A stretch of DNA of 64,000 nt from a virus. Positions 19,870 through 37,424 of this stretch are shown here, one piece after another. The number at the start of each line of letters is the position of its first letter. Position 1 is the first letter of the stretch. The position numbers were made by a program, and so were the translations under genes. The DNA lies in the IMG/VR virus record IMGVR_UViG_3300032334_001128, positions 1 to 64,000 of that record. One strand, given 5' to 3'. Below the pieces are notes generated by a model that saw only the letters and a program-made list of their open reading frames with translations, was not told the origin of the DNA and searched no databases.

Positions 19870-19905
19870 GCTTCGAAAAGGATCTAAAAATAATTATTTA
19901 TTTCG

Positions 19906-19931
19906 GGAATAAATAACTTGTAATGTCAGTT
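19906..19931 (+). promoter_or_regulatory. sigmaR/sigmaH-type promoter
   Basis: GGAAT-N18-GTT. Confidence 0.65.
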
Positions 19932-25114: not shown

Positions 25115-25157
25115 CTGCTCCGGCCGGTAAAGGATCTAAAAATAATTATTTATTTCG

Positions 25158-25183
25158 GGAATAAATCTAAGAAGTAATCAGTT
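25158..25183 (+). promoter_or_regulatory. sigmaR/sigmaH-type promoter
   Basis: GGAAT-N18-GTT. Confidence 0.65.
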
Positions 25184-25205
25184 CTTATTCTTGGAAAGGA
25201 TACTT

Positions 25206-25409
25206 ATGTTTATAGAGCAACCCAGAGATGCCGAAATGGCAGAACTATTTGCGTTAGGTCTAATCAAAGAGCCTAAGGAAGAACCAAGACTAATCCTTGT
25301 TCCTTGTAAGCACCCGAAGTGGTGTAAGACACACGGGACTACACGGATTAGGTTTAGAATCCTGAAAAATAGAATCAAAAGAATTCTAAAATTTGGGAAT
25401 AAATCCTAA
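25206..25409 (+). CDS. basic hypothetical protein
   Basis: GGAAAGGA RBS before ATG 25206. Confidence 0.6.
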   Translation: MFIEQPRDAEMAELFALGLIKEPKEEPRLILVPCKHPKWCKTHGTTRIRFRILKNRIKRILKFGNKS

Positions 25410-25421
25410 ACAAATCTAGTT
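25396..25421 (+). promoter_or_regulatory. sigmaR/sigmaH-type promoter
   Basis: GGAAT-N18-GTT; nearly identical to the minus-strand promoter near 11943-11968. Confidence 0.7.
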
Positions 25422-25443
25422 CTATTTACTGAAAGGAAAATAA

Positions 25444-25605
25444 ATGACTAATCAAATCCCAGACCCAGACCAGAACCCGTTACTGAAATCACCACGCCTA
25501 AACCTAGAAACAGGTGAAGGGCGTAGAAGTTTCTTAGAGTGGTTATTTGACCCCGAAGTTGATAAAGCCTTTGAGCAGGCTTTCCCGTTAGAAGAAGGAG
25601 AGTGA
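25444..25605 (+). CDS. 53-aa protein, paralog of 11775-11933
   Basis: GAAAGGAAA RBS; MTNQIPDPDQNPLL...WLFDPEVD. Confidence 0.75.
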   Translation: MTNQIPDPDQNPLLKSPRLNLETGEGRRSFLEWLFDPEVDKAFEQAFPLEEGE

Positions 25606-25607
25606 GA

Positions 25608-25772
25608 GTGAGAGCAAGAGTGAAGCTAACACCTGAACAGATCACTGAGTTGGATAAGTTCCAGACACGGAAGCTCTATGAGTTTGTCTATCTAGGGATG
25701 GCCGCCGGTATTATCCCCTTTGTCCCTAACCTAAGACTTAGCCGGATGGTGAGGAAGCTAAAACAGATCTAA
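25608..25772 (+). CDS. small hypothetical protein
   Basis: GTG start after GGAG; 54 aa. Confidence 0.45.
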   Translation: MRARVKLTPEQITELDKFQTRKLYEFVYLGMAAGIIPFVPNLRLSRMVRKLKQI

Positions 25773-25848
25773 ACTCGCCTAAGTAAATGTTGCGAAATGT
25801 CTGTTGCTCAGTGTAAACTGAAACACCAACTAGGAAAAGGAGTGTCTT

Positions 25849-26085
25849 ATGACTCACGCTGTTTATCTAAGAGACGATGTATTTGGAGATGTAATCGAAG
25901 CTTTATGGTTCTGTTCGGATCCTTGTGCTAGAACTCACCCTGAGTATCAGGGCTGGAACGGTTGCCAAGAAAACTACTCGCAACCAAACTGCCAGAACGA
26001 AATGTGTAAAGAAGCCTTGAGTTGGTATTGCGAAGATGAGCAAATCTGGTATATTGGAGATACACCACAAGAGAAAGCGAACTAA
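25849..26085 (+). CDS. Cys-containing hypothetical protein
   Basis: promoter TTGCGA-18-TAAACT at 25790-25819; AAAGGAG RBS. Confidence 0.7.
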   Translation: MTHAVYLRDDVFGDVIEALWFCSDPCARTHPEYQGWNGCQENYSQPNCQNEMCKEALSWYCEDEQIWYIGDTPQEKAN

Positions 26086-26246
26086 TGGAAATCATTGACC
26101 AAATCCTAAAAAACTTAGTCAAGTCTGGCAGAGTTGATAAAGAAGATAACGCTTATGCGTATCTTGCTGGAATGGCTTTCGCTGTTCTTACAGAAGAACA
26201 GCAACAAGAAATCTTAGCGATTACTGAAAAGGAGTATGAGCATTGA
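26085..26246 (+). CDS. small hypothetical protein
   Basis: TAATG coupling; 53 aa. Confidence 0.6.
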   Translation: MEIIDQILKNLVKSGRVDKEDNAYAYLAGMAFAVLTEEQQQEILAITEKEYEH

Positions 26247-26428
26247 GCAAGTATGTAAAACACCTAACTAATGACGAACTGCTAGAACGCTTGGCAGATG
26301 AGTTAGCAACTATGCACAAGGAAACCTACATTGAGTTAGGTTCTTGGGAAACTGCCAGAGAGTTAGTAGAGCGTTTCTACGAAGTAAATACCGAAGTGAC
26401 TGTTGGCAGAAAAAAGGAACAGAGATGA
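26243..26428 (+). CDS. hypothetical protein
   Basis: TTG start overlapping the upstream stop; AAGGAG RBS. Confidence 0.6.
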   Translation: MSKYVKHLTNDELLERLADELATMHKETYIELGSWETARELVERFYEVNTEVTVGRKKEQR

Positions 26429-26574
26429 ATAAACTAAACCACATTCTATCTATGCTCTCCGGTGAAAGTCAGATCGATGTGTTTCTTCTTGCCGAAGATG
26501 AAGCTTTGGTTGAGATGATTACGAGTGGAACTGATTACGCTGAACTGCTAGACTATCTAAACGATAATTACTAG
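26425..26574 (+). CDS. hypothetical protein
   Basis: ATGA overlap; AAAGGAA RBS. Confidence 0.65.
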   Translation: MNKLNHILSMLSGESQIDVFLLAEDEALVEMITSGTDYAELLDYLNDNY

Positions 26575-26585
26575 GAAAGGAAATT

Positions 26586-26792
26586 ATGTTTAGGAAATAC
26601 TATGTCTATATTTTTGATTGCGTTCATTGTGCCAAGTTCTACGGAGAGCAATCTCTAACTAGAACTGGTGAATTGCTTTGTCCGTCTTGTGGAGCAGAGC
26701 AGTGGAAAGAAAGCGATTATGTTGAGAAGATGAGAGTGAAGCGTAAGCCTAAACCCTTTGACCCCTTGATTGCTTTTGCCGATTACATCTAA
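26586..26792 (+). CDS. zinc-ribbon protein
   Basis: CVHC and CPSC motifs; GGAAAGGAAA RBS. Confidence 0.7.
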   Translation: MFRKYYVYIFDCVHCAKFYGEQSLTRTGELLCPSCGAEQWKESDYVEKMRVKRKPKPFDPLIAFADYI

Positions 26793-27017
26793 TCATTCTT
26801 CACAAAGCTTCCCCGGTGATCACTAGATCGCCGGGGATCTTTATACCTGGATCAGATCAGATCCGGATCAGTTGATCAAGCCGGATCGGATCTTGCCTGG
26901 CCGGTGCAGCTAGATCCGGAATGATCTCTCCGGAAGGATCTCCCGAAACACCTTACGAAATCTTGACAAGACACGCCTAACTGATAAACTGGAACTACCA
27001 TTCGGGAAAGGAATGAA

Positions 27018-27185
27018 ATGAACAAGGCGAATAAGGCAAGGCGTAATGCCGAAGCGTTAGCGTTAGAGATTATCTTGCGTGAGCGTTCACGCTCTAACGC
27101 TTCTGGCGTTCACGCCAACAAGGCAGACAAGCGAGCAAGAACTCGCAAGGCTAGACTAAACAAGGCGATAAGAGAGTGGAACTAA
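27018..27185 (+). CDS. small Arg/Lys-rich basic protein
   Basis: GGAAAGGAA RBS; RSRSNASGVHANKADKRARTR. Confidence 0.6.
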   Translation: MNKANKARRNAEALALEIILRERSRSNASGVHANKADKRARTRKARLNKAIREWN

Positions 27186-27304
27186 TGACTAAAAGAGAAC
27201 TAACACCTGAGCAAGCTAAGGCCAAGCGTGCTGATGAGATTGCTTGCCGAGTATCTCTAAGCTTGTTTGTAATCTTTATGCTTATCCAAGTATTTACTAG
27301 ATAA
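27185..27304 (+). CDS. 39-aa membrane peptide
   Basis: TAATG coupling; C-terminal hydrophobic helix. Confidence 0.5.
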   Translation: MTKRELTPEQAKAKRADEIACRVSLSLFVIFMLIQVFTR

Positions 27305-27333
27305 AAACGGATCCAAATTTATTTCTAATTTCG

Positions 27334-27359
27334 GGAATAAATCTGTTAGAGTTTGAGTT
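27334..27359 (+). promoter_or_regulatory. sigmaR/sigmaH-type promoter
   Basis: GGAAT-N18-GTT. Confidence 0.65.
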
Positions 27360-27381
27360 GTTATTACTGAAAGGAATAAAA

Positions 27382-27906
27382 ATGACCAACTATGAAAAGT
27401 CTTATGACGAAGCCAAAACTAAGAAGTTCACCAAGCCTGAACTTTGGAGTGAAATCTTACCTAACCTATGGCTAGGTGGAACTGACGATAATGACCGAGT
27501 TGGTGATAAGCATTGCGAGTTTGATAGACAAGACATCTCTATCAAGCCACGACACTTTGATAGTGTCTATACCTTTTATGCTCACGCTAATCCTGTTGAT
27601 TGGCTAGTGAAAGAGTTTAGATACGGCTACTTTGATAGTGCTGATACTGACTTTGATAAGTCAGCGTTTATGCGTATCGCTTACAACATCTTTACTGATT
27701 GGAAGTCTGGCGATAAAGTGTTGGTGCGTTGCCAAGCAGGTCTAAATAGGTCTGGCTTACTTATGGCGATAGTGCTAATGCTTGACGGCTACGAAATCCA
27801 AGAAGCGATTGACCTTATGCGTGAGAAGCGACACGAACTAGTGCTGTTCAACCCTAACTTTGTTGAGTGGTTGAGAAACCTAGACATTACCAACCCTAGT
27901 TGGTAG
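27382..27906 (+). CDS. dual-specificity protein phosphatase (Cx5R)
   Basis: VLVRCQAGLNRSG P-loop; ILPNLWLGG. Confidence 0.85.
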   Translation: MTNYEKSYDEAKTKKFTKPELWSEILPNLWLGGTDDNDRVGDKHCEFDRQDISIKPRHFDSVYTFYAHANPVDWLVKEFRYGYFDSADTDFDKSAFMRIAYNIFTDWKSGDKVLVRCQAGLNRSGLLMAIVLMLDGYEIQEAIDLMREKRHELVLFNPNFVEWLRNLDITNPSW

Positions 27907-28067
27907 TGTCTAGGGTTGAGGCCGAAGCTTGGAGATCACTAGATAAGATCACACCGGGCCGGCCGGGGGATCCAATTGGATCTACAAACACGCTAATAAA
28001 TAGAGTTGCGAATTATTTGTTTGTGTGGTTAGATTGACTTATTCCCGATTAGAAAAGGAGAAATAAA

Positions 28068-28298
28068 ATGGGAAAGAAGAAACTAGATACTTGGGCGTGG
28101 TTTGTTGCTCAGTATGAAAGTCAGGGCTACAAGTCTCTAAATCAGTTCGCAATCGCAACGGGCTTACAGAAGTCTAGCCTGAGTAGGTATTTCCACAATC
28201 AGCGACACATTCCGTCAAACACACTTGCTACGCTCTGCCGAGAGTTGCGTGTCTCACCTTACGAGTTGCTAACTGCTATTGGTGAGAAAGTTTCATAA
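28068..28298 (+). CDS. XRE-family HTH protein
   Basis: SLNQFAIATGLQKSSLSRYF...PSxxTLxxLCxxL; promoter TTGCGA-18-TAGATT at 28006-28035. Confidence 0.75.
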   Translation: MGKKKLDTWAWFVAQYESQGYKSLNQFAIATGLQKSSLSRYFHNQRHIPSNTLATLCRELRVSPYELLTAIGEKVS

Positions 28299-28382
28299 GC
28301 CAATCTCATAGAAAGAGATAACACCTGAGCAAGTGTTCTAAACTGCTCACTTACCGATAGACTTACAACATAAGGAGTTCTA

Positions 28383-28487
28383 ATGAAAAAGAAGCTTGCT
28401 AAAAGTTTGCTAAGTCTTAGTGGTGCTCTAATGGGTATTGCTCATAGATTATCTTGGACTGCTCATAACCTAAACACTAAAAAATAA
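28383..28487 (+). CDS. 34-aa basic peptide
   Basis: AAGGAG RBS. Confidence 0.45.
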   Translation: MKKKLAKSLLSLSGALMGIAHRLSWTAHNLNTKK

Positions 28488-28500
28488 AGGAACAGATCTA

Positions 28501-28629
28501 ATGACTGATAAAAATAAATCTAAGCTAGCTAAAAAAGAAAGCTGGTCTTGTATGCTGTGTGGAGCTACTACAACGGATCCAACACAAGCTCTAATCACTT
28601 ATTTCCACTGGCCTTGCCCTAAAAGGTAA
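28501..28629 (+). CDS. 42-aa Cys/His peptide
   Basis: AAAGGAA RBS; CMLC...HWPC. Confidence 0.5.
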   Translation: MTDKNKSKLAKKESWSCMLCGATTTDPTQALITYFHWPCPKR

Positions 28630-28712
28630 TAAAAGAAACACCGAATAAATACTTGTGTATTTGTTCCCTTGTGGTATAAACTGGACTTATCTCTCGGAAA
28701 GGAGATTAGGAA

Positions 28713-28916
28713 ATGAAGTTCTTTGTTCGTAGATTACTTGCTGGTGTTGTTATCGTTCCACTTACGGCAGTTGCTTATGTTCTTGTCTGTGCTTTGCTTA
28801 TCGGTCTTGGTGCTGGGCAGAATGAATCGGTTGCTGGGTATTTCGGTATTGGTCTATGGTTTGGTGTAGGCTTGACCTTAGTGTTTGCTTTTGACGCTCT
28901 TAGGAAGGTGAAGTAA
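28713..28916 (+). CDS. two-TM membrane protein
   Basis: promoter TTGTGT-18-TAAACT at 28653-28682; hydrophobic helices. Confidence 0.7.
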   Translation: MKFFVRRLLAGVVIVPLTAVAYVLVCALLIGLGAGQNESVAGYFGIGLWFGVGLTLVFAFDALRKVK

Positions 28917-29101
28917 TGAAGTTCTTGTTGATGTTCTTGGCTGTCTGGTCTATTGTTGCTGGTATTTATTATGGTGAAGTAGAAGGACACTTTGTATCCT
29001 TGATGATTGGTCTATCTCTTGGTGCTTTACTGATGTTTGGTGCTTTGGTTCTTGCGATTAGTGAGTTGCCACGATTCATTAGGCGTAGGAATAGACGCTA
29101 A
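28916..29101 (+). CDS. two-TM membrane protein with basic tail
   Basis: TAATG coupling; terminator at 29114-29145. Confidence 0.7.
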   Translation: MKFLLMFLAVWSIVAGIYYGEVEGHFVSLMIGLSLGALLMFGALVLAISELPRFIRRRNRR

Positions 29102-29162
29102 CCTGTTTTACTAAACACCCCTAGGAAACTAGGGGTGTTTTTTATAGTGGTATCCTTGACTT

Positions 29163-29315
29163 ATGATCGAAATAATTATTTATATTCTTTTAGCTATAAC
29201 TGGGCTGTTTATTTTTTACATAGCTGCCCTGCTACCTATAGCTAAGCTCATCTACACATACGGAGAGTCTAAAGACGATTGGTATTCGCATTATGAGGAA
29301 GAAGCATTAGATTGA
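29163..29315 (+). CDS. small membrane protein
   Basis: 50 aa with an N-terminal TM helix. Confidence 0.5.
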   Translation: MIEIIIYILLAITGLFIFYIAALLPIAKLIYTYGESKDDWYSHYEEEALD

Positions 29316-29475
29316 TGGAGATTGCTGGTTTAGTATTGATCCTTGTATTCCTGGCCGGATTGACTGCCGGGATCTCATATTTGATCTTGTTCGTGTATGC
29401 TAATCGAGTGATCCGGAATAATGATCCGGATCCACAAACTCTACTCGGAGTAGTATCTCCGAAGAAAGAAGACTA

Positions 29476-29637
29476 ATGTCTAGTTGGCTTATTCGTTTGC
29501 GTGATCTAGTTTGGCCGGCGATCATCTCTGTGATCCTGGTATCTGCTTCTGTGATCGTTGCGTTCTTTGCTCCACCTATCGCCGTAGTTCTAGGACTCGG
29601 TGGTATCTCATTCGCTCTATTAGCTCAGCGTGCTTAG
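29476..29637 (+). CDS. two-TM membrane peptide (possible holin-like)
   Basis: 53 aa, two hydrophobic segments, upstream of a PG-binding protein. Confidence 0.55.
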   Translation: MSSWLIRLRDLVWPAIISVILVSASVIVAFFAPPIAVVLGLGGISFALLAQRA

Positions 29638-29658
29638 CTGAGAGATTGGTAATAAATT

Positions 29659-30225
29659 ATGTCAAGTAAGAAATCAAATGGATCTGATGATCTAGATCCG
29701 ATCGTAGATCAAGATCAGGATCTAGAAGTTGATCAGATTGTAGATCCGGAGCCGATCGTTGATCAGGATCCGATCGTAGATCCGGTTGTTGATCAGGATC
29801 CGGTTGTTGATCAGGTTGTAGATCCGATCGTAGATCCGGAGCCGATCGTTGTAGCCCCGATCATTGAGATCACTGATGGTGGAATGATCCCGATCCCTTC
29901 TCGCCCGATCGTTCCTCAGGAAGTAACTCCGGCTGGCCCGGCTGTTGTTGGGTTTGGAGTCTTTGATGAAGTGTTCCTGGACAAGTGTATCTACAAGAAT
30001 GTATACAATCGTAAGTCGCTAACGATCCACCACTTACAACGGAGATTGTATGAGCTAGGGTACATCGTAGCTCTAAAGGACAAGGATGGGTATTACGGGG
30101 ATCTAACTAGATCAGCTGTAGCTCAGTTCCAGGCAGATCGTAATCTAGCTGGGGATGGCCTTATGACTGCTGAAGCCTTTGAGCTCATCTTTGCTAACGA
30201 TCCGAATGTGAAAGTCGTTCTATAG
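29659..30225 (+). CDS. peptidoglycan-binding domain protein with a GATC-encoded D/P/V/Q low-complexity N-terminus
   Basis: IHHLQRRLYELGY...DGYYGDLTRSAVAQFQ...DGLM PG_binding_1 pattern. Confidence 0.75.
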   Translation: MSSKKSNGSDDLDPIVDQDQDLEVDQIVDPEPIVDQDPIVDPVVDQDPVVDQVVDPIVDPEPIVVAPIIEITDGGMIPIPSRPIVPQEVTPAGPAVVGFGVFDEVFLDKCIYKNVYNRKSLTIHHLQRRLYELGYIVALKDKDGYYGDLTRSAVAQFQADRNLAGDGLMTAEAFELIFANDPNVKVVL

Positions 30226-30324
30226 ATCGTTGTTCGCTGTTGAGAGATGCCAATCTGTTATACGGGTTGGCATTTCTCGTTATTATCCTGTAATGTTGGG
30301 AAAAGACAAGACAAAGGAGAAATT

Positions 30325-30903
30325 ATGTCTAATTATGTAAAGCAGAACCACGAACTACCTAGTGAAGTGCTAGATAGTGCCAAATCTATTCCATCTCGGG
30401 ATAAGCAGACTAGAAACGCTTATGTAAAGGCTCTAAGAGAGCAAGGGTGGACATTTGAGAGCATTAGCGTAGCATTTGGTATGACTAGGGAGAGAGTTCG
30501 TCAAATTGCCATTATGGAGAGCAATACGGACATTGTGAAGGACTATCCACTACCTTTACCACCATTGGCTCCCGAAGTAGTGAAAGTGAAGCGTGAGCTC
30601 ATCTTGCCTAGCGACAAGGTGCTTAGTCGCTTACTAGAACTACAACCACTAGCACAACAGGTGCGTTCCAATAGCAAGAAGTATCGTAGTGAAGCAGAAG
30701 AATACTCACACTTACTAAATCACGCTATCGAAGTAGAAGGTGTATCAACTTATCGGTTAGCCAAACTACTAGGTATCACTCACGGGGCTATTCGTTTCCG
30801 TCTTGCTAGATACGGCTATAAGCCTGAAACGGCAGGTAAGAGTTCTGTTTACTCTGCTATTCTGGATAAGAATAGAGTGGGTATCACTACCACCATTGAG
30901 TAA
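30325..30903 (+). CDS. double-HTH DNA-binding protein, possible terminase small subunit
   Basis: sigma70-r4-like WTFESISVAFGMTRERVRQI and a second HTH STYRLAKLLGITHGAIRFRL; immediately upstream of TerL. Confidence 0.6.
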   Translation: MSNYVKQNHELPSEVLDSAKSIPSRDKQTRNAYVKALREQGWTFESISVAFGMTRERVRQIAIMESNTDIVKDYPLPLPPLAPEVVKVKRELILPSDKVLSRLLELQPLAQQVRSNSKKYRSEAEEYSHLLNHAIEVEGVSTYRLAKLLGITHGAIRFRLARYGYKPETAGKSSVYSAILDKNRVGITTTIE

Positions 30904-30915
30904 TTAGGAGTGTAA

Positions 30916-32325
30916 GTGGCTAAATCACTTATGGAACAGATCGCTTTACTACCACCTGAAGAACAAGCAAGAGTATTAGCTGGAATGGATCCGGAGACTC
31001 TTATGTGGGACTGGTCTGCTTGGGGTAGACCTGAGCAACAAGCTCCCGTAGGTGATTGGAACATCTGGGCTTACATCGCTGGTCGTGGTGCTGGTAAGAC
31101 TAGGACTGCTGCTGAGTGGGTTCGTGAAGAAGCGAAATACACTACAACAGGACAACGACGCTTTGCTTTGGTAGCAAGAACAGCAGCCGATGTACGAGAT
31201 GTGATCGTAGAAGGTGAGTCAGGAATTATGAATGTGACTCCCCCTAGTGAAAGGCCACTATACGAACCATCTAAGCGTAGGTTGACCTGGCCTAACGGAA
31301 ATGTCGCTACTTGCTTTACAGCAGACGAACCAGACTCTCTCCGTGGACCTCAGTTCACTCACGCCTGGGGAGATGAGATTGCTGCCTGGCGACAGACACC
31401 AGACGCAGCTGGTATGACTGCTTTTGATAACTTGCGTGTTGGAACTCGTCTTGGTGCTACTCCTAAGATTATGGTCACTACCACACCGAAGCGTGTTCCA
31501 CTTTTGTATAAGTTGATCGAAGAAGCGAAGACAGGTCGAGTAGTGATCACTCGTGGATCTACTATGGATAACTCGGGGAACCTATCTGTTGCTTATCTAG
31601 ACGCTATTACTGGTGTTTATGCTGGAACTCGCCTAGCTCAGCAAGAAATCTATGGTGAGATGCTAGACAGCGTAGAAGGTGCTTTGTGGACAGAAGAACT
31701 GATTGAGCAACATAGACAAGGTGCTATGCCATTAGGGACTCCACTAAGAGTGATCGGTGTTGACCCTAGCGTTGCTGAGAACCCTAGAGATGAATGTGGG
31801 ATCGTTGTATGTGCTTCTACCTCTGAGCGTGATCTGTATAAGCGACACGCTTGGGTATTAGAAGACGCTAGCGTTCACGGATCTCCGGATGTTTGGGCTA
31901 ACAAGGTTGTTGAGATGGCTCGTAAGTGGGGATGTCCTGTAGTAGCTGAAGTAAACCAAGGTGGAGCATTGGTAAAGAATGCGATCCACACTATCGATCC
32001 AAACATTACTGTATTAGAAGTTCATTCTAAGTATGGTAAAGCTCTTAGAGCTGAACCTGTTACATTGGCTTATGAGCAGGGTAGAGTTCACCATTTAGGT
32101 TATCTCGGATCCTTAGAGAGCCAGATGTATTCCTGGATCCCTGGAGAAGGTAAATCTCCCGATCGTGTTGACGCATTAGTTCACGCTCTCACTGCTCTAA
32201 TGATCAAGCCTCCGTCTGGCTTTACTGGGGGAAAGATTACAGCTCGATCCGTGGCCGGAAGAAAGATCCCTAATGTTCGTGGTAATGACGCAACTGGATC
32301 TAGGGGAATCTTTAGAGTTAGATAA
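30916..32325 (+). CDS. terL: terminase large subunit
   Basis: AGRGAGKT Walker A, SLRGPQ, WGDE Walker B, GVDP RNase H-like nuclease, SPDRVDA. Confidence 0.93.
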   Translation: MAKSLMEQIALLPPEEQARVLAGMDPETLMWDWSAWGRPEQQAPVGDWNIWAYIAGRGAGKTRTAAEWVREEAKYTTTGQRRFALVARTAADVRDVIVEGESGIMNVTPPSERPLYEPSKRRLTWPNGNVATCFTADEPDSLRGPQFTHAWGDEIAAWRQTPDAAGMTAFDNLRVGTRLGATPKIMVTTTPKRVPLLYKLIEEAKTGRVVITRGSTMDNSGNLSVAYLDAITGVYAGTRLAQQEIYGEMLDSVEGALWTEELIEQHRQGAMPLGTPLRVIGVDPSVAENPRDECGIVVCASTSERDLYKRHAWVLEDASVHGSPDVWANKVVEMARKWGCPVVAEVNQGGALVKNAIHTIDPNITVLEVHSKYGKALRAEPVTLAYEQGRVHHLGYLGSLESQMYSWIPGEGKSPDRVDALVHALTALMIKPPSGFTGGKITARSVAGRKIPNVRGNDATGSRGIFRVR

Positions 32326-32332
32326 TTATTTG

Positions 32333-32358
32333 GGAATAAATCCCTTGCTTTGTCGGTT
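32333..32358 (+). promoter_or_regulatory. sigmaR/sigmaH-type promoter
   Basis: GGAAT-N18-GTT. Confidence 0.65.
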
Positions 32359-32401
32359 GTATGTAGTAGAGTGTAATCAACTACTACGAAAGGCTCTAAC
32401 T

Positions 32402-32527
32402 ATGGACGCTTCTAACCTTTACTATGGCGACGAAACCCTAGACGATTGTACCCGTGAAGAATACGACGCTTGGGTAAATCGTCCTGAAGTTTGGGACGAC
32501 AACTGGGACAAGAAGGAAACTGACTAA
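32402..32527 (+). CDS. 41-aa acidic peptide
   Basis: ACGAAAGG RBS before ATG 32402. Confidence 0.6.
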   Translation: MDASNLYYGDETLDDCTREEYDAWVNRPEVWDDNWDKKETD

Positions 32528-32751
32528 TGGCAACTACTAACCCTTACACCAACTACTCGGCCGAAGCTTTGGGCTATGCTCTGGAAGCAGCAAATCGCAA
32601 GGTATCACTTGGCGACACTAGCGAAGACTTGCTCACTATGATTGAGCAGATGGGCGAAGCTTTAGAACAGAAGCAGGGGACGGATAGGTGCCAACACGGC
32701 GTCTATCTTTATGGTGATGTGTCCCCGTCTTGTTGGGAATGTGAAGCCTAG
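32527..32751 (+). CDS. hypothetical protein
   Basis: TAATG coupling; terminator at 32762-32800. Confidence 0.7.
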   Translation: MATTNPYTNYSAEALGYALEAANRKVSLGDTSEDLLTMIEQMGEALEQKQGTDRCQHGVYLYGDVSPSCWECEA

Positions 32752-32868
32752 TAATCTCTTAATAAATAATCCCTTATCAAGCTGGTAAGGGATTATTTAT
32801 TATGCTGATCGGTTGCTTCTATGATCATTACCAGGCTAAAAATAGATCCAAAATAAATAAAAAATCTG

Positions 32869-32894
32869 GGAATAAATACCTTGCCTGATTGGTT
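32869..32894 (+). promoter_or_regulatory. sigmaR/sigmaH-type promoter
   Basis: GGAAT-N18-GTT. Confidence 0.65.
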
Positions 32895-32936
32895 ATTTAT
32901 AGTAAGATGAAATCACCACTCCGGAAAGGAACCCTA

Positions 32937-33284
32937 ATGAACCTAGAACACGCACAACTTTTTGAGTTTATTTGTGATGACGCTAGTTATGGTGGCATTG
33001 GCTACTGGGCTAGTTTGGCTGATAATAACCCTGAGAAGCAGACCTACTCTGTGGAAGTAAGACCTGAATACAGAGATGATGAAATCAAGGACAAGGTGCT
33101 AACTTACCAAGACCTTTATGACGCTTGCGAGAAGTTAGCCACTGGTAAGGTGTCTGTAAATAGCAACACCAAGAAAGTCTGCCAACAGATTATTCTTGAC
33201 CCTACTGATGATGTAGATTATGACGCAGAAGACGCAGACTGTATTGTCCAAGTTGCTATGTTCGGTGAAATCCTATTTGGCTAA
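32937..33284 (+). CDS. conserved phage hypothetical protein
   Basis: GGAAAGGAA RBS; GIGYWA...DAEDADCIVQVAMFGEILFG; terminator at 33300-33340. Confidence 0.75.
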   Translation: MNLEHAQLFEFICDDASYGGIGYWASLADNNPEKQTYSVEVRPEYRDDEIKDKVLTYQDLYDACEKLATGKVSVNSNTKKVCQQIILDPTDDVDYDAEDADCIVQVAMFGEILFG

Positions 33285-33346
33285 TCACTAATCTCTAATA
33301 AGTAATCCCTTGCTGAGCTAGCAGGGGATTATTTATTTATACGGAT

Positions 33347-33806
33347 GATCATTGCTACTGATCATTGATCATTGATCATACGGATCCGATCATTTGATCT
33401 GATCATTTGATCTGATCATTGATCATAGGCAGATCCGATCATATACGGTGATCCTGATCCATAGATCATTGCTGCTTAGATCCATTTGTGATCATTGATC
33501 TTGATCTGATCTTATACGGTGATCTGATCTGATCTGATCATAAGTTTTGATCTAGATCTGATCTGCCGATCTATTACGGCTATACGGTTGATCATTTGTC
33601 CCTGATCGTTGCTTTGATCATTGATCTTGATCTGATCATTATTAGATCAGCTGATCTAATTATTTTTTATTCGTTAGATCATTTGATCATTGCTTTTTTA
33701 TTTTTATTTGATCGTGATCAATAAGACGGAGCCTCTATCTAATGATCATTGCCTATCACTAATGATCAATACCCCCCTGTCCTTTATCAAGTGGAATACG
33801 GTGATC
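33347..33806. repeat. GATC-dense array (about 44 GATC, mostly TGATCA/TGATCT)
   Basis: hand count; non-coding. Confidence 0.9.
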
Positions 33807-33811
33807 ATTTA

Positions 33812-34198
33812 TAGCTCATAGCTCAGCTGGGTAGCTCAGCTCATAGCTCAGCTGGGTAGCTATCTAAGCTCATAGCTCAGCTCATAGCTCAGCTGGGTAG
33901 CTCAGCTCATAGCTCAGCTGGGTAGCTCATAGCTCAGCTCATAGCTCAGCTCGTATCTGGTAGCTCAGCTCATAGCTCGTAGCTCAGCTCATTAGCTAGC
34001 TCATAGCTCAGCTCAGCTCATAGCTCAGCTCGTTAGAAGTTTGTAGCTCAGCTCATAGCTCGTAGCTCAGCTCATCAGCTAGGTAGCTCAGCTCGTAGCT
34101 CAGCTCAGCTCGTAGCTCAGCTCATAGCTCATCAGCTAGGTAGCTCAGCTCGTAGCTCAGCTCATCAGCTAGGTCATCAGCTCAGCTCGTTAGAAGTT
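33812..34198. repeat. AGCT-dense array (about 56 AGCT; units such as TAGCTCAGCTCA)
   Basis: hand count; non-coding; no GATC in this block. Confidence 0.9.
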
Positions 34199-34472
34199 TG
34201 TGTGTTATTTGGTTAGGTTAGGCTTGCCTAACTTACTAGGTCTGGTCTGGTTCGTTAGAAGTTGGAGCGTTTGTCTGTCCAAATAGTTATGTAAAGTTAG
34301 GTAAGCCTTACCTAACTGACGGCATCTCAGGAAAAATTCAGGAAACGATTTAGAGTGCTCCGAAAAACATGCGTTGCCGTCTCGCAGGCCAAAGTCAAAA
34401 AACGTTAAGGTATCACTTTTACGTACAGTACAGTCTTTCAATCAATGTCTCATCTTCTGCTAAACTGTACAC

Positions 34473-34973
34473 ATGTCTAGACGTCCAGCTCGTAATCAAA
34501 AACTTCCGCCATCGGAGATCCAACTCTTCAAAACTCTCGACTACAATCACACCGTAGTCCGAGTCAAGGCTCTATTTGCAGCCGGTTGGACCCTGGCTTC
34601 CATTGGGGCGGCTTTCTACCCGTCTAAAGGACGTTCGTCTATCAAAGCTTGGGTGGATCGTCCTACGCCCCCGAACGTTGTCGTCGACGTCCCTATTCCC
34701 GATCCAAACTATAAAACCCCCAAAAACGGCTACGTCCGTAAGACTCCAGTTTCCCCGGGAATATCTACAGTCACAGAAGGTACTCTCAGACGTCTGGCAC
34801 CCATAGCTAAACGCTACAGATCGGGTATGGCATCGACGTCCCCAGAAGCTATCGCAAACGCTGAGATGGACAAACTCGTGAAGGGACTTAGAGAAGTCGA
34901 CGTCACTATTGCCGAGATTGCTCGTGCAGCCGGCGTAACACATCGAGCAATTTCCCGTAGACTGAGTAAATAA
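34473..34973 (+). CDS. double-HTH DNA-binding protein, paralog of 30325-30903
   Basis: GWTLASIGAAF and TIAEIARAAGVTHRAISRRL; TAAACT just upstream of the ATG (leaderless). Confidence 0.7.
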   Translation: MSRRPARNQKLPPSEIQLFKTLDYNHTVVRVKALFAAGWTLASIGAAFYPSKGRSSIKAWVDRPTPPNVVVDVPIPDPNYKTPKNGYVRKTPVSPGISTVTEGTLRRLAPIAKRYRSGMASTSPEAIANAEMDKLVKGLREVDVTIAEIARAAGVTHRAISRRLSK

Positions 34974-35657: not shown

Positions 35658-37424
35658 ATGGCAGTTTTCAGACGTGAACAGAATCCAATTCGTGGATCAG
35701 TTCCACCTACCCGAACTCAGGTAACATCAACACCTACTCCGTTCGGCTACACCCAGCTATCCCCGGCTACATACAACGTTATGCGTCCTCTAACTGCTGC
35801 CGCTGCACAAATCAAACTTAATGATCGCAGCGAAGCAGACCAGTTCAGAAACCGACGTCTATCATCTTCTTCTGCATGGCAGTCAGAAGCTTGGGAGTAC
35901 TACGACGCAATTGGTGAAATCAAGTACGCATTCTCACTTGTTGCATCCGTTGTCTCACGTATCCGTCTTTACGCTGCAATCATTCTTGACCCAGCTGAAG
36001 CTCCGACTCCAATTCGTAATGCAGCTAGCATTGAAGAACGTCTAGCATCTGCCGCTGAGCGTGCTATCCAACGTCTAGACTCAGCCTACGGAGGCCAAGC
36101 AGGTCTCTTGCGTGACGCTGCTCTAAACCTCGCTGTTACCGGTGAATGTTACCTCGTACAGATTCCTGAACGTCAAGGATCAGGAATTCCTGAGTCCTGG
36201 GACATTCGCTCAGTTGATGAACTTCAGATTGACCAGAAAGGTCAGTACTCTGTTATCGCTAGACGAGAAATGCTTCAGGGAACTGCTAACGGAAAAGGCA
36301 TGGGAATCAAACTTCCTGCGAACGCTTTTGTTGGACGTATTTGGAGAGCCCACCCACGTTTCTCAGAAGAGGCAGACTCCTCTTTACGCGGTCTGCTAGA
36401 CCTCTGTGCTGAACTACTACTTCTAAACCGTACATTCCGTGCAACTGCACGTTCACGCCTAAACGCTGGTGCTCTCTATCTACCGGACGGCTTGAGCGTA
36501 GCTTCTAGTGCTGACCCTAACTATCCTTACGATGACGCTGACGGTCTATCTGCAGAACCTACTCCAGAAGAAATCGCAGACGAGTTCGAAGACCAGTTGA
36601 TCGACGCGATGACAACCCCGATTCGCGACGAAGACTCTGCCAGCGCAGTTGTTCCACTTATTATTCGTGGTCCTGCCGAACTTGGTGACAAGATTAAGCA
36701 GTTCAAGTTCGAGCGTTCATTCGATGCAACTCTTGTTCAGCGTGCTGACCGTGTGCTAGAGCGTATTCTGCAAGGTCTCGACGTCCCTAAGGACATCGTT
36801 ACCGGTCTTGCAAACGTAAAGTACTCAAACGCTGTTCAGATTGACGAGTCACTTTACAAGGCTCACATTGAACCGTTGATGCTTCTTATTGCTGACGCAA
36901 TCACAGTTGTTTATCTACGTCCTTATCTACTTGCCAACGGTTTCTCACAGACCGACGTTGACAGAGTTGTTGCTTGGTATGACCCATCTGCTGTTGCAAC
37001 TCGTAACGACCGTGCAATGGATGCTGACTCAGGTTTCGACAAGATGGCTGTCTCATACGACACATGGAGACGTGCTCACGGATTCTCAGACCAAGATGCA
37101 CCTAGCCCATCTGAAGTAGCTCTACGTATGATTATGGACAAGGGTATGATCACTCCAGAACTTACTGAAGCAATGCTTAATGCTGTTGCTCCAGAGGTCA
37201 TGGAAGCCACTCGTAAGGCCTCACAGGCTAGCTCAGTGGCTCCAATTCCACCAGGCTTAGAGCAGATGCTACAGGGTGCCCAACCAGGCGCTCCTGCCCC
37301 TGCTCCCGCTGCTCCGGCAGCTCCAACTCCAGAGGCAATTCCGCCTTCTGGAGCTCCAACACAAGAAGCTCCGGCTCAGGAAAACCCGGCAGCTCCCCCA
37401 ATTCCGCTAGCGGAACCACAGTAA
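35658..37424 (+). CDS. portal protein
   Basis: WQSEAWEYYDAIGEIKYA actinophage portal pattern; position before the head genes; Pro/Ala tail. Confidence 0.8.
   Translation: MAVFRREQNPIRGSVPPTRTQVTSTPTPFGYTQLSPATYNVMRPLTAAAAQIKLNDRSEADQFRNRRLSSSSAWQSEAWEYYDAIGEIKYAFSLVASVVSRIRLYAAIILDPAEAPTPIRNAASIEERLASAAERAIQRLDSAYGGQAGLLRDAALNLAVTGECYLVQIPERQGSGIPESWDIRSVDELQIDQKGQYSVIARREMLQGTANGKGMGIKLPANAFVGRIWRAHPRFSEEADSSLRGLLDLCAELLLLNRTFRATARSRLNAGALYLPDGLSVASSADPNYPYDDADGLSAEPTPEEIADEFEDQLIDAMTTPIRDEDSASAVVPLIIRGPAELGDKIKQFKFERSFDATLVQRADRVLERILQGLDVPKDIVTGLANVKYSNAVQIDESLYKAHIEPLMLLIADAITVVYLRPYLLANGFSQTDVDRVVAWYDPSAVATRNDRAMDADSGFDKMAVSYDTWRRAHGFSDQDAPSPSEVALRMIMDKGMITPELTEAMLNAVAPEVMEATRKASQASSVAPIPPGLEQMLQGAQPGAPAPAPAAPAAPTPEAIPPSGAPTQEAPAQENPAAPPIPLAEPQ

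Follow-up and report, generated by a model that had tools for sequence, protein, structure and literature searches.

We examined a stretch of 64,000 nucleotides of viral DNA (the window), which is the first 64 kb of a 126,293-bp IMG/VR phage contig from a lake phage (IMGVR_UViG_3300032334_001128) and has all of its genes on the + strand, and within it a dense array of GATC and AGCT words between the terminase region and the virion operon. We consider it probable that this array, with its two blocks, is a sub-terminal repeat region that has expanded within a long direct terminal repeat (DTR), beside a conserved cut site. The main evidence is an element of ~100 bp (34338-34436) that lies directly after the array, is conserved far above the adjacent helix-turn-helix (HTH) protein, and is homologous to the sequence at the DTR ends of four cultured relatives. 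An earlier note on this DNA, made from the sequence alone, had listed a genome-end element or packaging site among several options for the array, and it is this option that the homology supports.

A conserved element after the array matches the DNA ends of cultured relatives

A megablast search with 30-38.6 kb of the window against cultured phages gave no match. The cultured relatives that were found by their portal proteins have no array between the large terminase (TerL) and the portal, and we therefore examined their genome ends. In the Microbacterium phage Pumpernickel the first 1,000 nt recur at position 166,133, giving a DTR of 19,963 bp, and the inner boundary of this DTR falls inside a 714-bp non-coding gap. 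After a terminator at its start, the gap contains irregular repeats of short words (G-runs with CCTATAG/CTAGAGG, GGCAGG, TAGGCC and CATG words) and then enters a homologue of the window element, ...GAAACGTTTGAGAGAAAGGCCGAAATATAAGGAC/TTTGCAGAAATCGGCCAAACG...TTAAGGTTCAC...CAGTACA, where the slash marks the boundary. The DTR of a second Microbacterium phage, A3Wally, is 15,503 bp long; the record ends ...CCAATATAAGGAT and the left copy goes on TTTCCTCTCAGCGGCCAAACG... The DTR ends of these two phages share column 47 of our alignment (A1), which corresponds to 34374/34375 of the window. Consistent with this, the records of the Microbacterium phages Zooman and Cece end ...CCCAAATAAGGAT and ...CCCGAAATAAGGGC, matching an ...AAATAAGGRY motif. 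From this homology we infer that in the window phage the DTR, and with it the virion DNA, has its right end after position 34374. The end of block 2 is 186 bp from this predicted cut, and the arrays span 186-1030 bp from the predicted end.

The four Microbacterium phages, whose DTRs are 15.5-20 kb long and end in one alignment column, have one layout, in which the last DTR gene is followed by a terminator, repeat words, ~250 nt and the cut, and the non-coding stretch before the cut measures 570-714 bp. TAGCTCA occurs before the cut in 1, 2, 3 and 0 copies (0 in Cece), all on the + strand, against 0.04 expected, and other words found there are TGATCA, GGCAGG and TAGGC; this is the vocabulary that is amplified in the aquatic clade. 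Two cultured phages of other hosts agree with the general pattern. Gordonia phage Forza has a 1,605-bp DTR holding a (TAGCTG)n array, with ~16 TAGCTG copies and GTGATG repeats, and in Arthrobacter phage Atuin three CCGAAATTTTTGT words stand a little before the boundary of a DTR of 17,312 bp. The terminal repeats of the relatives thus range from 1.6 to 20 kb. The left DTR junctions of Pumpernickel and A3Wally carry no array. Three complete relatives are flagged in IMG/VR as having a "direct terminal repeat", but the flagged repeats are 103-114-bp assembly overlaps at arbitrary places, so that the flags are uninformative on real ends.

Composition and setting of the array

The array occupies most of a non-coding gap of 1,188 bp (33285-34472) that separates the open reading frame (ORF) at 32889-33284, in the terminase region, from the HTH gene that opens the portal operon. 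ORF, tRNA and Rfam scans detected no credible ORF, tRNA gene or Rfam family in this gap. The placement given in the earlier note, between the terminase region and the virion operon, is correct. Direct counting gave 44 GATC in 33347-33806 against 2.9 expected (Poisson P = 4e-36, from a rate of 6.3/kb outside the block across the window) and 56 AGCT in 33811-34188 against 2.4 expected (P = 4e-55), in agreement with the earlier estimates of about 44 and about 56. The GATC stand mostly in TGATCA (11 non-overlapping, 17 in total) and TGATCT (10), with (T)ATACGG as punctuation, and all 56 AGCT have one orientation, (T/C)AGCTC(A/G), at spacings of 5, 7 or 8 nt. As the note had claimed, the switch from one word to the other is abrupt, with one AGCT in block 1 and zero GATC in block 2, and the repeats are irregular rather than a perfect microsatellite, Tandem Repeats Finder (TRF) returning periods of 5, 7, 12, 25 and 41 at 64-70% matches.

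The non-coding region opens with a hairpin (Table 1) whose counterparts open the arrays of relatives and of the cultured phages. A scan of the gap for sigma-70 and terminator consensus sequences showed no excess over shuffles and overlooked this hairpin, which was later revealed by folding. Across the whole 126-kb genome the array is the sole non-coding low-complexity tract, and its units are not enriched elsewhere in the genome. It also marks a border between two compositionally different parts, as had been noted earlier: GC content is ~0.41-0.44 with a positive GC skew on the left and 0.48-0.50 with a negative skew over 34-40 kb.

Several other repeats were observed in the genome. The 11-mer CGTTAGAAGTT has 12 exact copies listed in the 126-kb genome, on both strands, against ~0.06 expected (window 1503, 1861, 2122, 6450, 6580, 8350, 34031, 34188 and 34253; genome 87685, 118002 and 124375). 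Three + strand copies punctuate or come after block 2, and several of the others are intragenic. A second GATC cluster, at window 29689-29839 within the ORF 29659-30225, is coding (37 GATC in 29-30 kb): its 18-bp repeats encode an acidic (V/I)DP(I/E)(P/V)VDQ linker ahead of the PG_binding_1 domain of a peptidoglycan-binding protein, and it does not form an independent cluster of sites. At genome 100.5-104.3 kb, CCTTG repeats with a 9-bp period on the + strand correspond to collagen-like Gly-X-Y repeats encoded by fibre genes of the minus strand; this stretch has almost no GATC or AGCT.

Relatives keep the position of the array and exchange its units

IMG/VR searches anchored on the portal and TerL yielded 160 loci. 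In the nearest subclade (TerL at least 86% identical) an irregular array of 0.3-1 kb is present in nearly every contig that reaches the interval, and the strong arrays of the IMG/VR relatives are found either 1.3-2.4 kb before the portal or immediately behind TerL. Their units are specific to the lineage and mostly non-palindromic. In the subclade they are TAGCTCA; AGGCTCA/CAGGCTC; GGCAGG(T); GGTCAGG; GCAGGTGA; GGGCTAG; TTGGGCT; TGTGT/CCTGT; AGGGCA with GGCAAGG; and CGCGCCAC. Distant members of the clade, and the published phage DSL-LC01 from a metagenome-assembled genome (MAG; portal 74% identical), have arrays of CACGCA, CACTAC or AATCGT.

The sister phage L004 (TerL 94% and portal 91% identical) shows how far the exchange goes among close relatives. 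It retains the terminator, the ATACGG punctuation (CATACGGAT), the AT-rich middle with its TGATCA words and an AGCTC block 2, and its block 1 consists of AGCTC units, separated by CATACGGAT, in place of TGATC. The middle segment is partly alignable between the two phages (33652-33701 against L004 6008-6055, 82%), and block 2 aligns with the arrays of L004 at 75-80%. Similarly, the CAGCTCA of the window differs by one base from the CAGGCTCA unit of L020, L042 and L108-112. Since the units turn over in this way, the arrays evolve like satellites and the GATC and AGCT palindromes are incidental. The earlier note had proposed looking for the same two-block structure in related genomes; the position is kept, and in L004 the layout as well, but the GATC and AGCT content is not. 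The TTAGGC half-sites of the palindromes in the window spacer are themselves the array unit in L030 and L041.

The interval can also hold genes. In L012 it has tRNA-Asn and tRNA-Leu genes (L012:641-714 and 1288-1361) instead of an array. Minus-strand genes for hydrophobic (membrane) proteins of ~60-70 amino acids lie between array blocks in L009 (6290-6500) and L042 (5600-5790 and 6220-6530), each with a bidirectional terminator and with a GTTAGG...CCTAAC palindrome on its promoter side. We considered and dropped two ideas on the units. A tRNA origin of block 2, in which TAGCTCAGCTGGGTAGCTC resembles a tRNA D-arm, was left as a curiosity, tRNA genes occurring at the site in one relative only (L012), and Chi-like protection of DNA ends was rejected, as the units share no orientation or composition across relatives.

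Contigs across the array

A Logan contig of the probable source run covers 25137-33842 with zero differences, and a Logan contig of a second sample covers 33076-33897 with 21 differences. Block 1 is thus spanned by single contigs in two samples, where the earlier note had asked for spanning reads. Block 2 is fragmented into 50-110-nt unitigs in every run, so that its exact copy number is provisional. Further support is provided by the AGCTC array of the sister phage, which is found at the matching place in four IMG/VR contigs. Four contigs from different metagenomes are identical across 12 kb, array included, and two strains with 98.8% identity differ by a total gap of 37 nt over a 3.1-kb stretch taking in the array. 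The array is not an assembly artefact. Many contigs of relatives end within arrays, from either side, which fits repeat-induced assembly breaks, and because the array sits between terminase and portal, assemblies often break there. An exact 38-bp direct repeat is present at window 19877-19914 and 25129-25166, 5.2 kb apart, and the Logan contig across block 1 has its left end at the second copy.

Neighbouring genes and the extent of the predicted repeat

The features of the interval are collected in Table 1. TerL is preceded by HTH0, and the predicted end is followed by an HTH0 paralogue, here called HTH. HTH0 is 46% identical (tblastn) to gp41 of A3Wally, the last gene within the A3Wally DTR, and gp41 matches HTH more weakly. 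The last DTR gene of Cece, gp347, has a position equivalent to that of A3Wally gp41 and is annotated as an HTH DNA-binding protein. HTH0 is a candidate for a small terminase or a terminus-recognition protein. A PDB sequence search and NCBIfam returned for HTH0 only sub-threshold matches, of sigma-region-4 and Cbp1-like type. Its residues 57-188 align end to end with the NCBIfam Cbp1 model, far below threshold (E = 0.013), which is only a hint that HTH0 is a tandem-HTH protein; Cbp1, from Sulfolobales, has multiple HTH motifs and binds CRISPR repeats.

The recognition helices of HTH0 (TRERVRQI and THGAIRFRL) are invariant across 15 relatives, and the C-terminal recognition helix of HTH (VTHRAI) is near-invariant across phages with differing array units. 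Because these helices do not vary where the units are unrelated, the two proteins cannot be reading the array units; both are more likely to recognise something conserved, such as the terminus element. The small ORF P2355 is less conserved, with 61% identity between the window phage and L004 against 94% for TerL. By actinobacterial promoter rules, the TGcTAAACT sequence before the HTH gene would be a promoter giving a leaderless HTH mRNA.

Table 1. Features between the terminase and portal genes (coordinates are window positions)
Feature	Coordinates	Strand	Description	Support
HTH0	30247..30903	+	218 amino acids; two sigma-70 region-4-like HTH motifs; directly upstream of TerL	Pfam, PHROG
TerL	30916..32325	+	large terminase (Terminase_6N + Terminase_6C)	62% identical to Pumpernickel terminase
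P2355	32889..33284	+	last ORF before the array; 131 amino acids; phrog_2355	
Terminator-like hairpin	33297..33337	+	19-bp stem, then ATTTATTTATACGG	fold -23.9 kcal/mol, z = -5.7
Block 1	33338..33660	+	irregular TGATC(A/T)(T) units with (T)ATACGG and TTGCT punctuation; 34 of the 44 GATC	
AT-rich middle	33661..33810	+	67% A+T; spaced TGATCA words; ~150 bp	
Block 2	33811..34188	+	(T/C)AGCTC(A/G) units in 5- and 7-nt steps (TAGCTCA + GCTCA); punctuation GCTGGG, CATCAGCTAGG, CGTTAGAAGTTTG	
Unique spacer	34189..34337	+	two GTTAGG...CCTAAC inverted repeats (~34211-34232, ~34296-34318); third CGTTAGAAGTT copy at 34253	
Conserved terminus element	34338..34436	+	GGAAACGA...CCGAAAAACATGCGT/TGCCGTCTCGCAGGCCAAAGTCAAAAAACGTTAAGGTATCA...CAGTACAG	alignment A1
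Extended -10 promoter (putative)	34458..34466	+	TGcTAAACT; ends 6 nt before the next ATG	upstream-region alignment; kept as TGATACAAT in relatives
HTH	34473..34973	+	166-amino-acid HTH0 paralogue; first gene past the predicted end; opens the HTH-p122-DUF1360-portal operon	
Portal	35658-37424	+	preceded by HTH, a 122-amino-acid ORF and a DUF1360 protein	

The first DTR genes of A3Wally, gp1 and gp4, match the genome of the window phage at 123,956-124,756 and 309-449. The first 126 nt of the contig recur at 125,102-125,227 (99%), within the 5' part of an endolysin-like ORF, and the tail that follows (125,228-126,293) diverges completely. The contig looks like a closed circle of ~125.1 kb plus variant or inserted sequence, and not like a fragment missing 6%. 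Synteny would place the start of the repeat at ~123.8 kb and its end, beyond the join, at 34,374, for a length of ~36 kb. Compared with A3Wally, the putative module of terminator, repeats and cut element is on the other side of TerL and, to judge from gene order, behaves independently of its neighbours.

A probable sub-terminal repeat region at the end of a long terminal repeat

In the mechanism that we favour, the region would start at the strong terminator behind the last gene of the repeat. Simple-sequence arrays would then take up ~850 bp and be followed by a unique stretch of ~150 bp that contains two inverted repeats. The terminase would cut in the conserved ~100-bp element, making the right end of the virion DNA after 34374. 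An array inside the DTR is present twice in packaged DNA. One copy would lie ~0.2-1 kb from the right physical end. The other would close the left repeat on its inner side, with the small early genes (and the terminase gene) on one flank and the head operon on the other. The sequence-specific signal would be the conserved element, probably read by HTH0 and HTH together with the terminase, and the arrays would act irrespective of the sequence of their units. The units may turn over through slippage and homogenisation of a small vocabulary (TAGCTCA, TGATCA, TAGGC and GGCAGG), words that occur as single or few copies in the soil relatives, and the GATC and AGCT palindromes would be by-products of whichever word expanded.

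From its position and persistence, the array may be a cis-acting accessory to end formation or to DNA transfer at the DTR boundary. It could slow or position the packaging complex for the nearby cut, as pacB of T7 serves pacC, or it could make the entering DNA pause where the early region ends, in the manner of the T5 injection stop signal; insulation of early from late transcription may come as a side effect. We are doubtful about the more specific proposal that the arrays are a sequence-independent mechanical brake or pause, acting on the packaging motor just ahead of the terminal cut, on ejection where the ~36-kb early-gene repeat ends, or on both. If this were true, actinobacterial phages would have a T5-like two-step entry, and the array would be free to evolve like a satellite since only its repetitiveness would matter.

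Several observations weigh against a DTR that ends at the array. The phages in which the cut is known have portals ~62-65% identical to that of the window phage, and the end at 34374 is predicted by homology to them. Among the relatives' IMG/VR contigs that we inspected, none terminates precisely at the predicted cut. A second terminus motif, which would mark the left DTR boundary, was searched for and not found, and when the sequence upstream of the gp1 homologue was aligned to the two known left junctions the match was unconvincing. In the cultured phages TerL comes after the cut, along with ~8 kb of minus-strand genes, whereas here TerL precedes the predicted cut and would therefore sit inside the repeat. 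In approximately half of the more distant relatives the interval contains genes and lacks a strong array, and in some TerL directly abuts HTH, indicating that a large array is dispensable. Finally, the neighbouring promoter could account for part of the conservation of the element in the window. In the soil phages, however, the element continues past the cut into the ends of minus-strand genes and not into HTH, so that the conservation of this part is not explained by an HTH promoter.

Sequencing depth has points on both sides. In run X1 the mean k-mer depth is 20 for the contig left of block 2 and 11.6 for the contig on its right; in run X3 the depths are ~9-11 and ~5.5, and the high-depth contig ends near 34374 (computed from bin means). 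This ~1.7-fold step agrees with a repeat that ends at the array and is a weak hint of it. As further counterevidence, the step is found in two of four runs (X2 and X4 have none), the X1 unitigs within block 2 have depths of 12-25 and not a clean twofold value, and a strain mixture sharing the left side could produce an equal picture. The depth values are contig means and the array unitigs are noisy; stretches without cover (for example X3 34375-34574) and run X5, with its small share, were excluded from the evidence.

Other explanations for the array

The array might be only a spacer, produced by neutral expansion of simple sequence in which slippage inflates short words between the terminator and the promoter or cut. 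This accommodates units that differ in each lineage, even between sister phages, the many relatives without a strong array or without any gap, the other cargo of the interval (tRNA genes in L012, minus-strand membrane-protein genes in L009 and L042), and the 37-nt gap between two nearly identical strains. We nevertheless regard it as rather unlikely, since arrays of 0.3-1 kb persist in nearly all members of the nearest subclade despite the compactness of phage genomes, and arrays reappear among distant members as well as in DSL-LC01 and Gordonia phage Forza. TAGCTCA, GGCAGG and TAGGC also recur across very deep divergence, the four contigs from different metagenomes are identical through the array, and no other non-coding low-complexity tract exists in the 126 kb. 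A platform for protein loading, resembling a centromere, an iteron array or a roadblock, would assign the turnover to a fast-evolving DNA-binding protein that polymerises on the 5-7-bp units and co-evolves with them. Omega polymerises on the heptads of pSM19035, and ParG on the tetramer boxes of TP228. The units here are indeed mostly heptamers in a single orientation, those of L030, L041 and L042 are the TTAGGC half-sites of the GTTAGG...CCTAAC palindromes that also flank the window array, and small neighbours evolve fast (P2355 at 61% against TerL at 94% in the sister phage). On the other hand, the test covered the two adjacent HTH proteins, HTH0 and HTH, and neither co-varies with the units; the rest of the genome shows no enrichment of the units, no candidate reader was found, and no ParA or ParM partner was seen, none having been looked for. 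We think such a platform improbable.

Two further readings fare worse. The earlier note had inferred control by two methylases (m6A at GATC and mC at AGCT) of a packaging site, an origin or a genome-end element, or else a "master sink" for the palindromes. Gating of a packaging site or origin by methylated GATC (m6A) and AGCT (m5C/m4C) clusters, as in the pac site of P1 or in oriC of Escherichia coli, would suit the 17 TGATCA, a hexamer that is the word of P1 pac, and a locus that adjoins the predicted genome end. Yet the phage genome encodes no Dam (PF02086), C5 (PF00145) or N4/N6 (PF01555) DNA methylase, the three main families, in searches in which positive controls scored. Block 1 of the sister phage is AGCTC, GATC and AGCT thus not being conserved even in L004, and other relatives have non-palindromic units. 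Genome-wide, GATC and AGCT are neither avoided nor enriched beyond 1.17 and 0.95 times expectation (observed/expected, Markov), and neither two-methylase control nor the sink is supported. No DnaA boxes like TTGTCCACA at one mismatch or fewer were found in any of seven regions examined, and cumulative GC skew, a check that the note had suggested, has a local dip only over 34-40 kb, followed by a rise, with no genome-wide minimum at the array. The array does have an AT-rich segment of 150 bp; the DnaA boxes and the skew switch of an oriC-like origin are absent. The homologous cut is, moreover, ~180 bp past block 2 and not between the word clusters. With no methylase, no DnaA boxes and a turnover of the units, the basis for a two-methylase switch or an oriC-like origin is gone; methylation gating has already been largely refuted and we hold it to be very unlikely. 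A collapsed or mis-joined low-complexity region, the remaining reading, is hardly conceivable. It would agree with the 50-110-nt unitigs of block 2 in every run and with the many IMG/VR contigs that break inside such arrays, but single contigs span block 1 in two samples, long IMG/VR contigs cross homologous arrays in several metagenomes, and the finished genomes of cultured phages carry the region in small form. As a caution for scans of this kind, dense palindromic tetramers in a repeat array may be unrelated to methylation.

Implications

The genome ends of uncultured phages are almost never known. With the ~100-bp element, which is anchored on four cultured phages whose records stop at one motif position, the end can be predicted to a few bases throughout a large clade of actinobacterial phages from freshwater, in which about 600 contigs bearing a portal were matched in IMG/VR. 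If the proposal of a mechanical brake or pause were true, a large and abundant freshwater phage clade would have approximately a quarter of its packaged genome in duplicate, terminase gene included, with a telomere-like repeat at the boundary.

Comparison with known systems

The closest described structure is the untranslated Repeat Region 3 of phage T5, which is 1.2 kb long, lies mostly inside the 10-kb left terminal repeat with 270 bp beyond it, and is the presumed injection stop signal (bioRxiv 10.1101/866236, Davison). Its repeats are conserved in sequence and order among T5-like phages, with 8 DnaA boxes (bioRxiv 10.1101/866236). As in T5, an untranslated region of ~1.1-1.2 kb with direct repeats and palindromes would stand here where a long DTR with small early genes has its inner end, would slightly overrun the DTR boundary (by 270 bp in T5 and by 98 bp of non-coding DNA past the predicted cut here), and would part the early genes from the rest of the genome. 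A repeat-rich non-coding region at the inner DTR boundary is present in the cultured relatives as well, and the window element aligns with theirs, the cut column being 34374. The two systems differ in that the repeats of T5 are conserved and accompanied by DnaA boxes, whereas the units here are lineage-specific and DnaA boxes are absent; the terminase gene would fall within the repeat here; and these actinophages are not known to transfer their DNA in two steps.

Phage T7 offers a second analogue. Dunn and Studier are said to have described in 1983 the short repeats SRL and SRR, which reportedly flank the terminal repetition in T7 and T3. Like these imperfect tandem words of ~7 bp, which lie within a few hundred bases of the genome end and by the terminase genes, the TAGCTCA and TGATCAT units stand in 5-8-nt steps near the predicted end. 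The recognition and cleavage parts of the packaging signal appear separable in both systems, pacB of T7 serving in recognition and pacC in cleavage (PMC9860248). In contrast to the 160-bp repeat of T7, with arrays on both outer sides, the repeat here would be of kilobase size, with arrays inside it and at one boundary only, and the arrays are 2-5 times longer. A distant third likeness, by analogy only, is to herpes simplex virus, which shares the HK97-fold capsid and the terminase and has hypervariable short tandem arrays beside conserved cleavage and packaging signals; the host domain and the terminal architecture are different. In its "a" sequence, the DR2/DR4 tandem arrays lie between the cleavage/packaging signals pac1 and pac2.

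The pac site of P1 resembles the array in its TGATCA words clustered near a packaging cut. In P1, seven clustered TGATCA/G words flank the cut, and cleavage is Dam-dependent. Here, by contrast, there are dozens of words, at 0.6-1 kb from the predicted cut rather than flanking it, the phage encodes no methylase, and the words are replaced by others in relatives. The clade offers a natural series, in which a sub-terminal repeat region has grown from a few words to ~1 kb and its units have been swapped repeatedly between fixed neighbours. This makes it a good system in which to ask what role such repeats have, a question that is decades old for the injection stop region of T5 and for SRL and SRR of T7.

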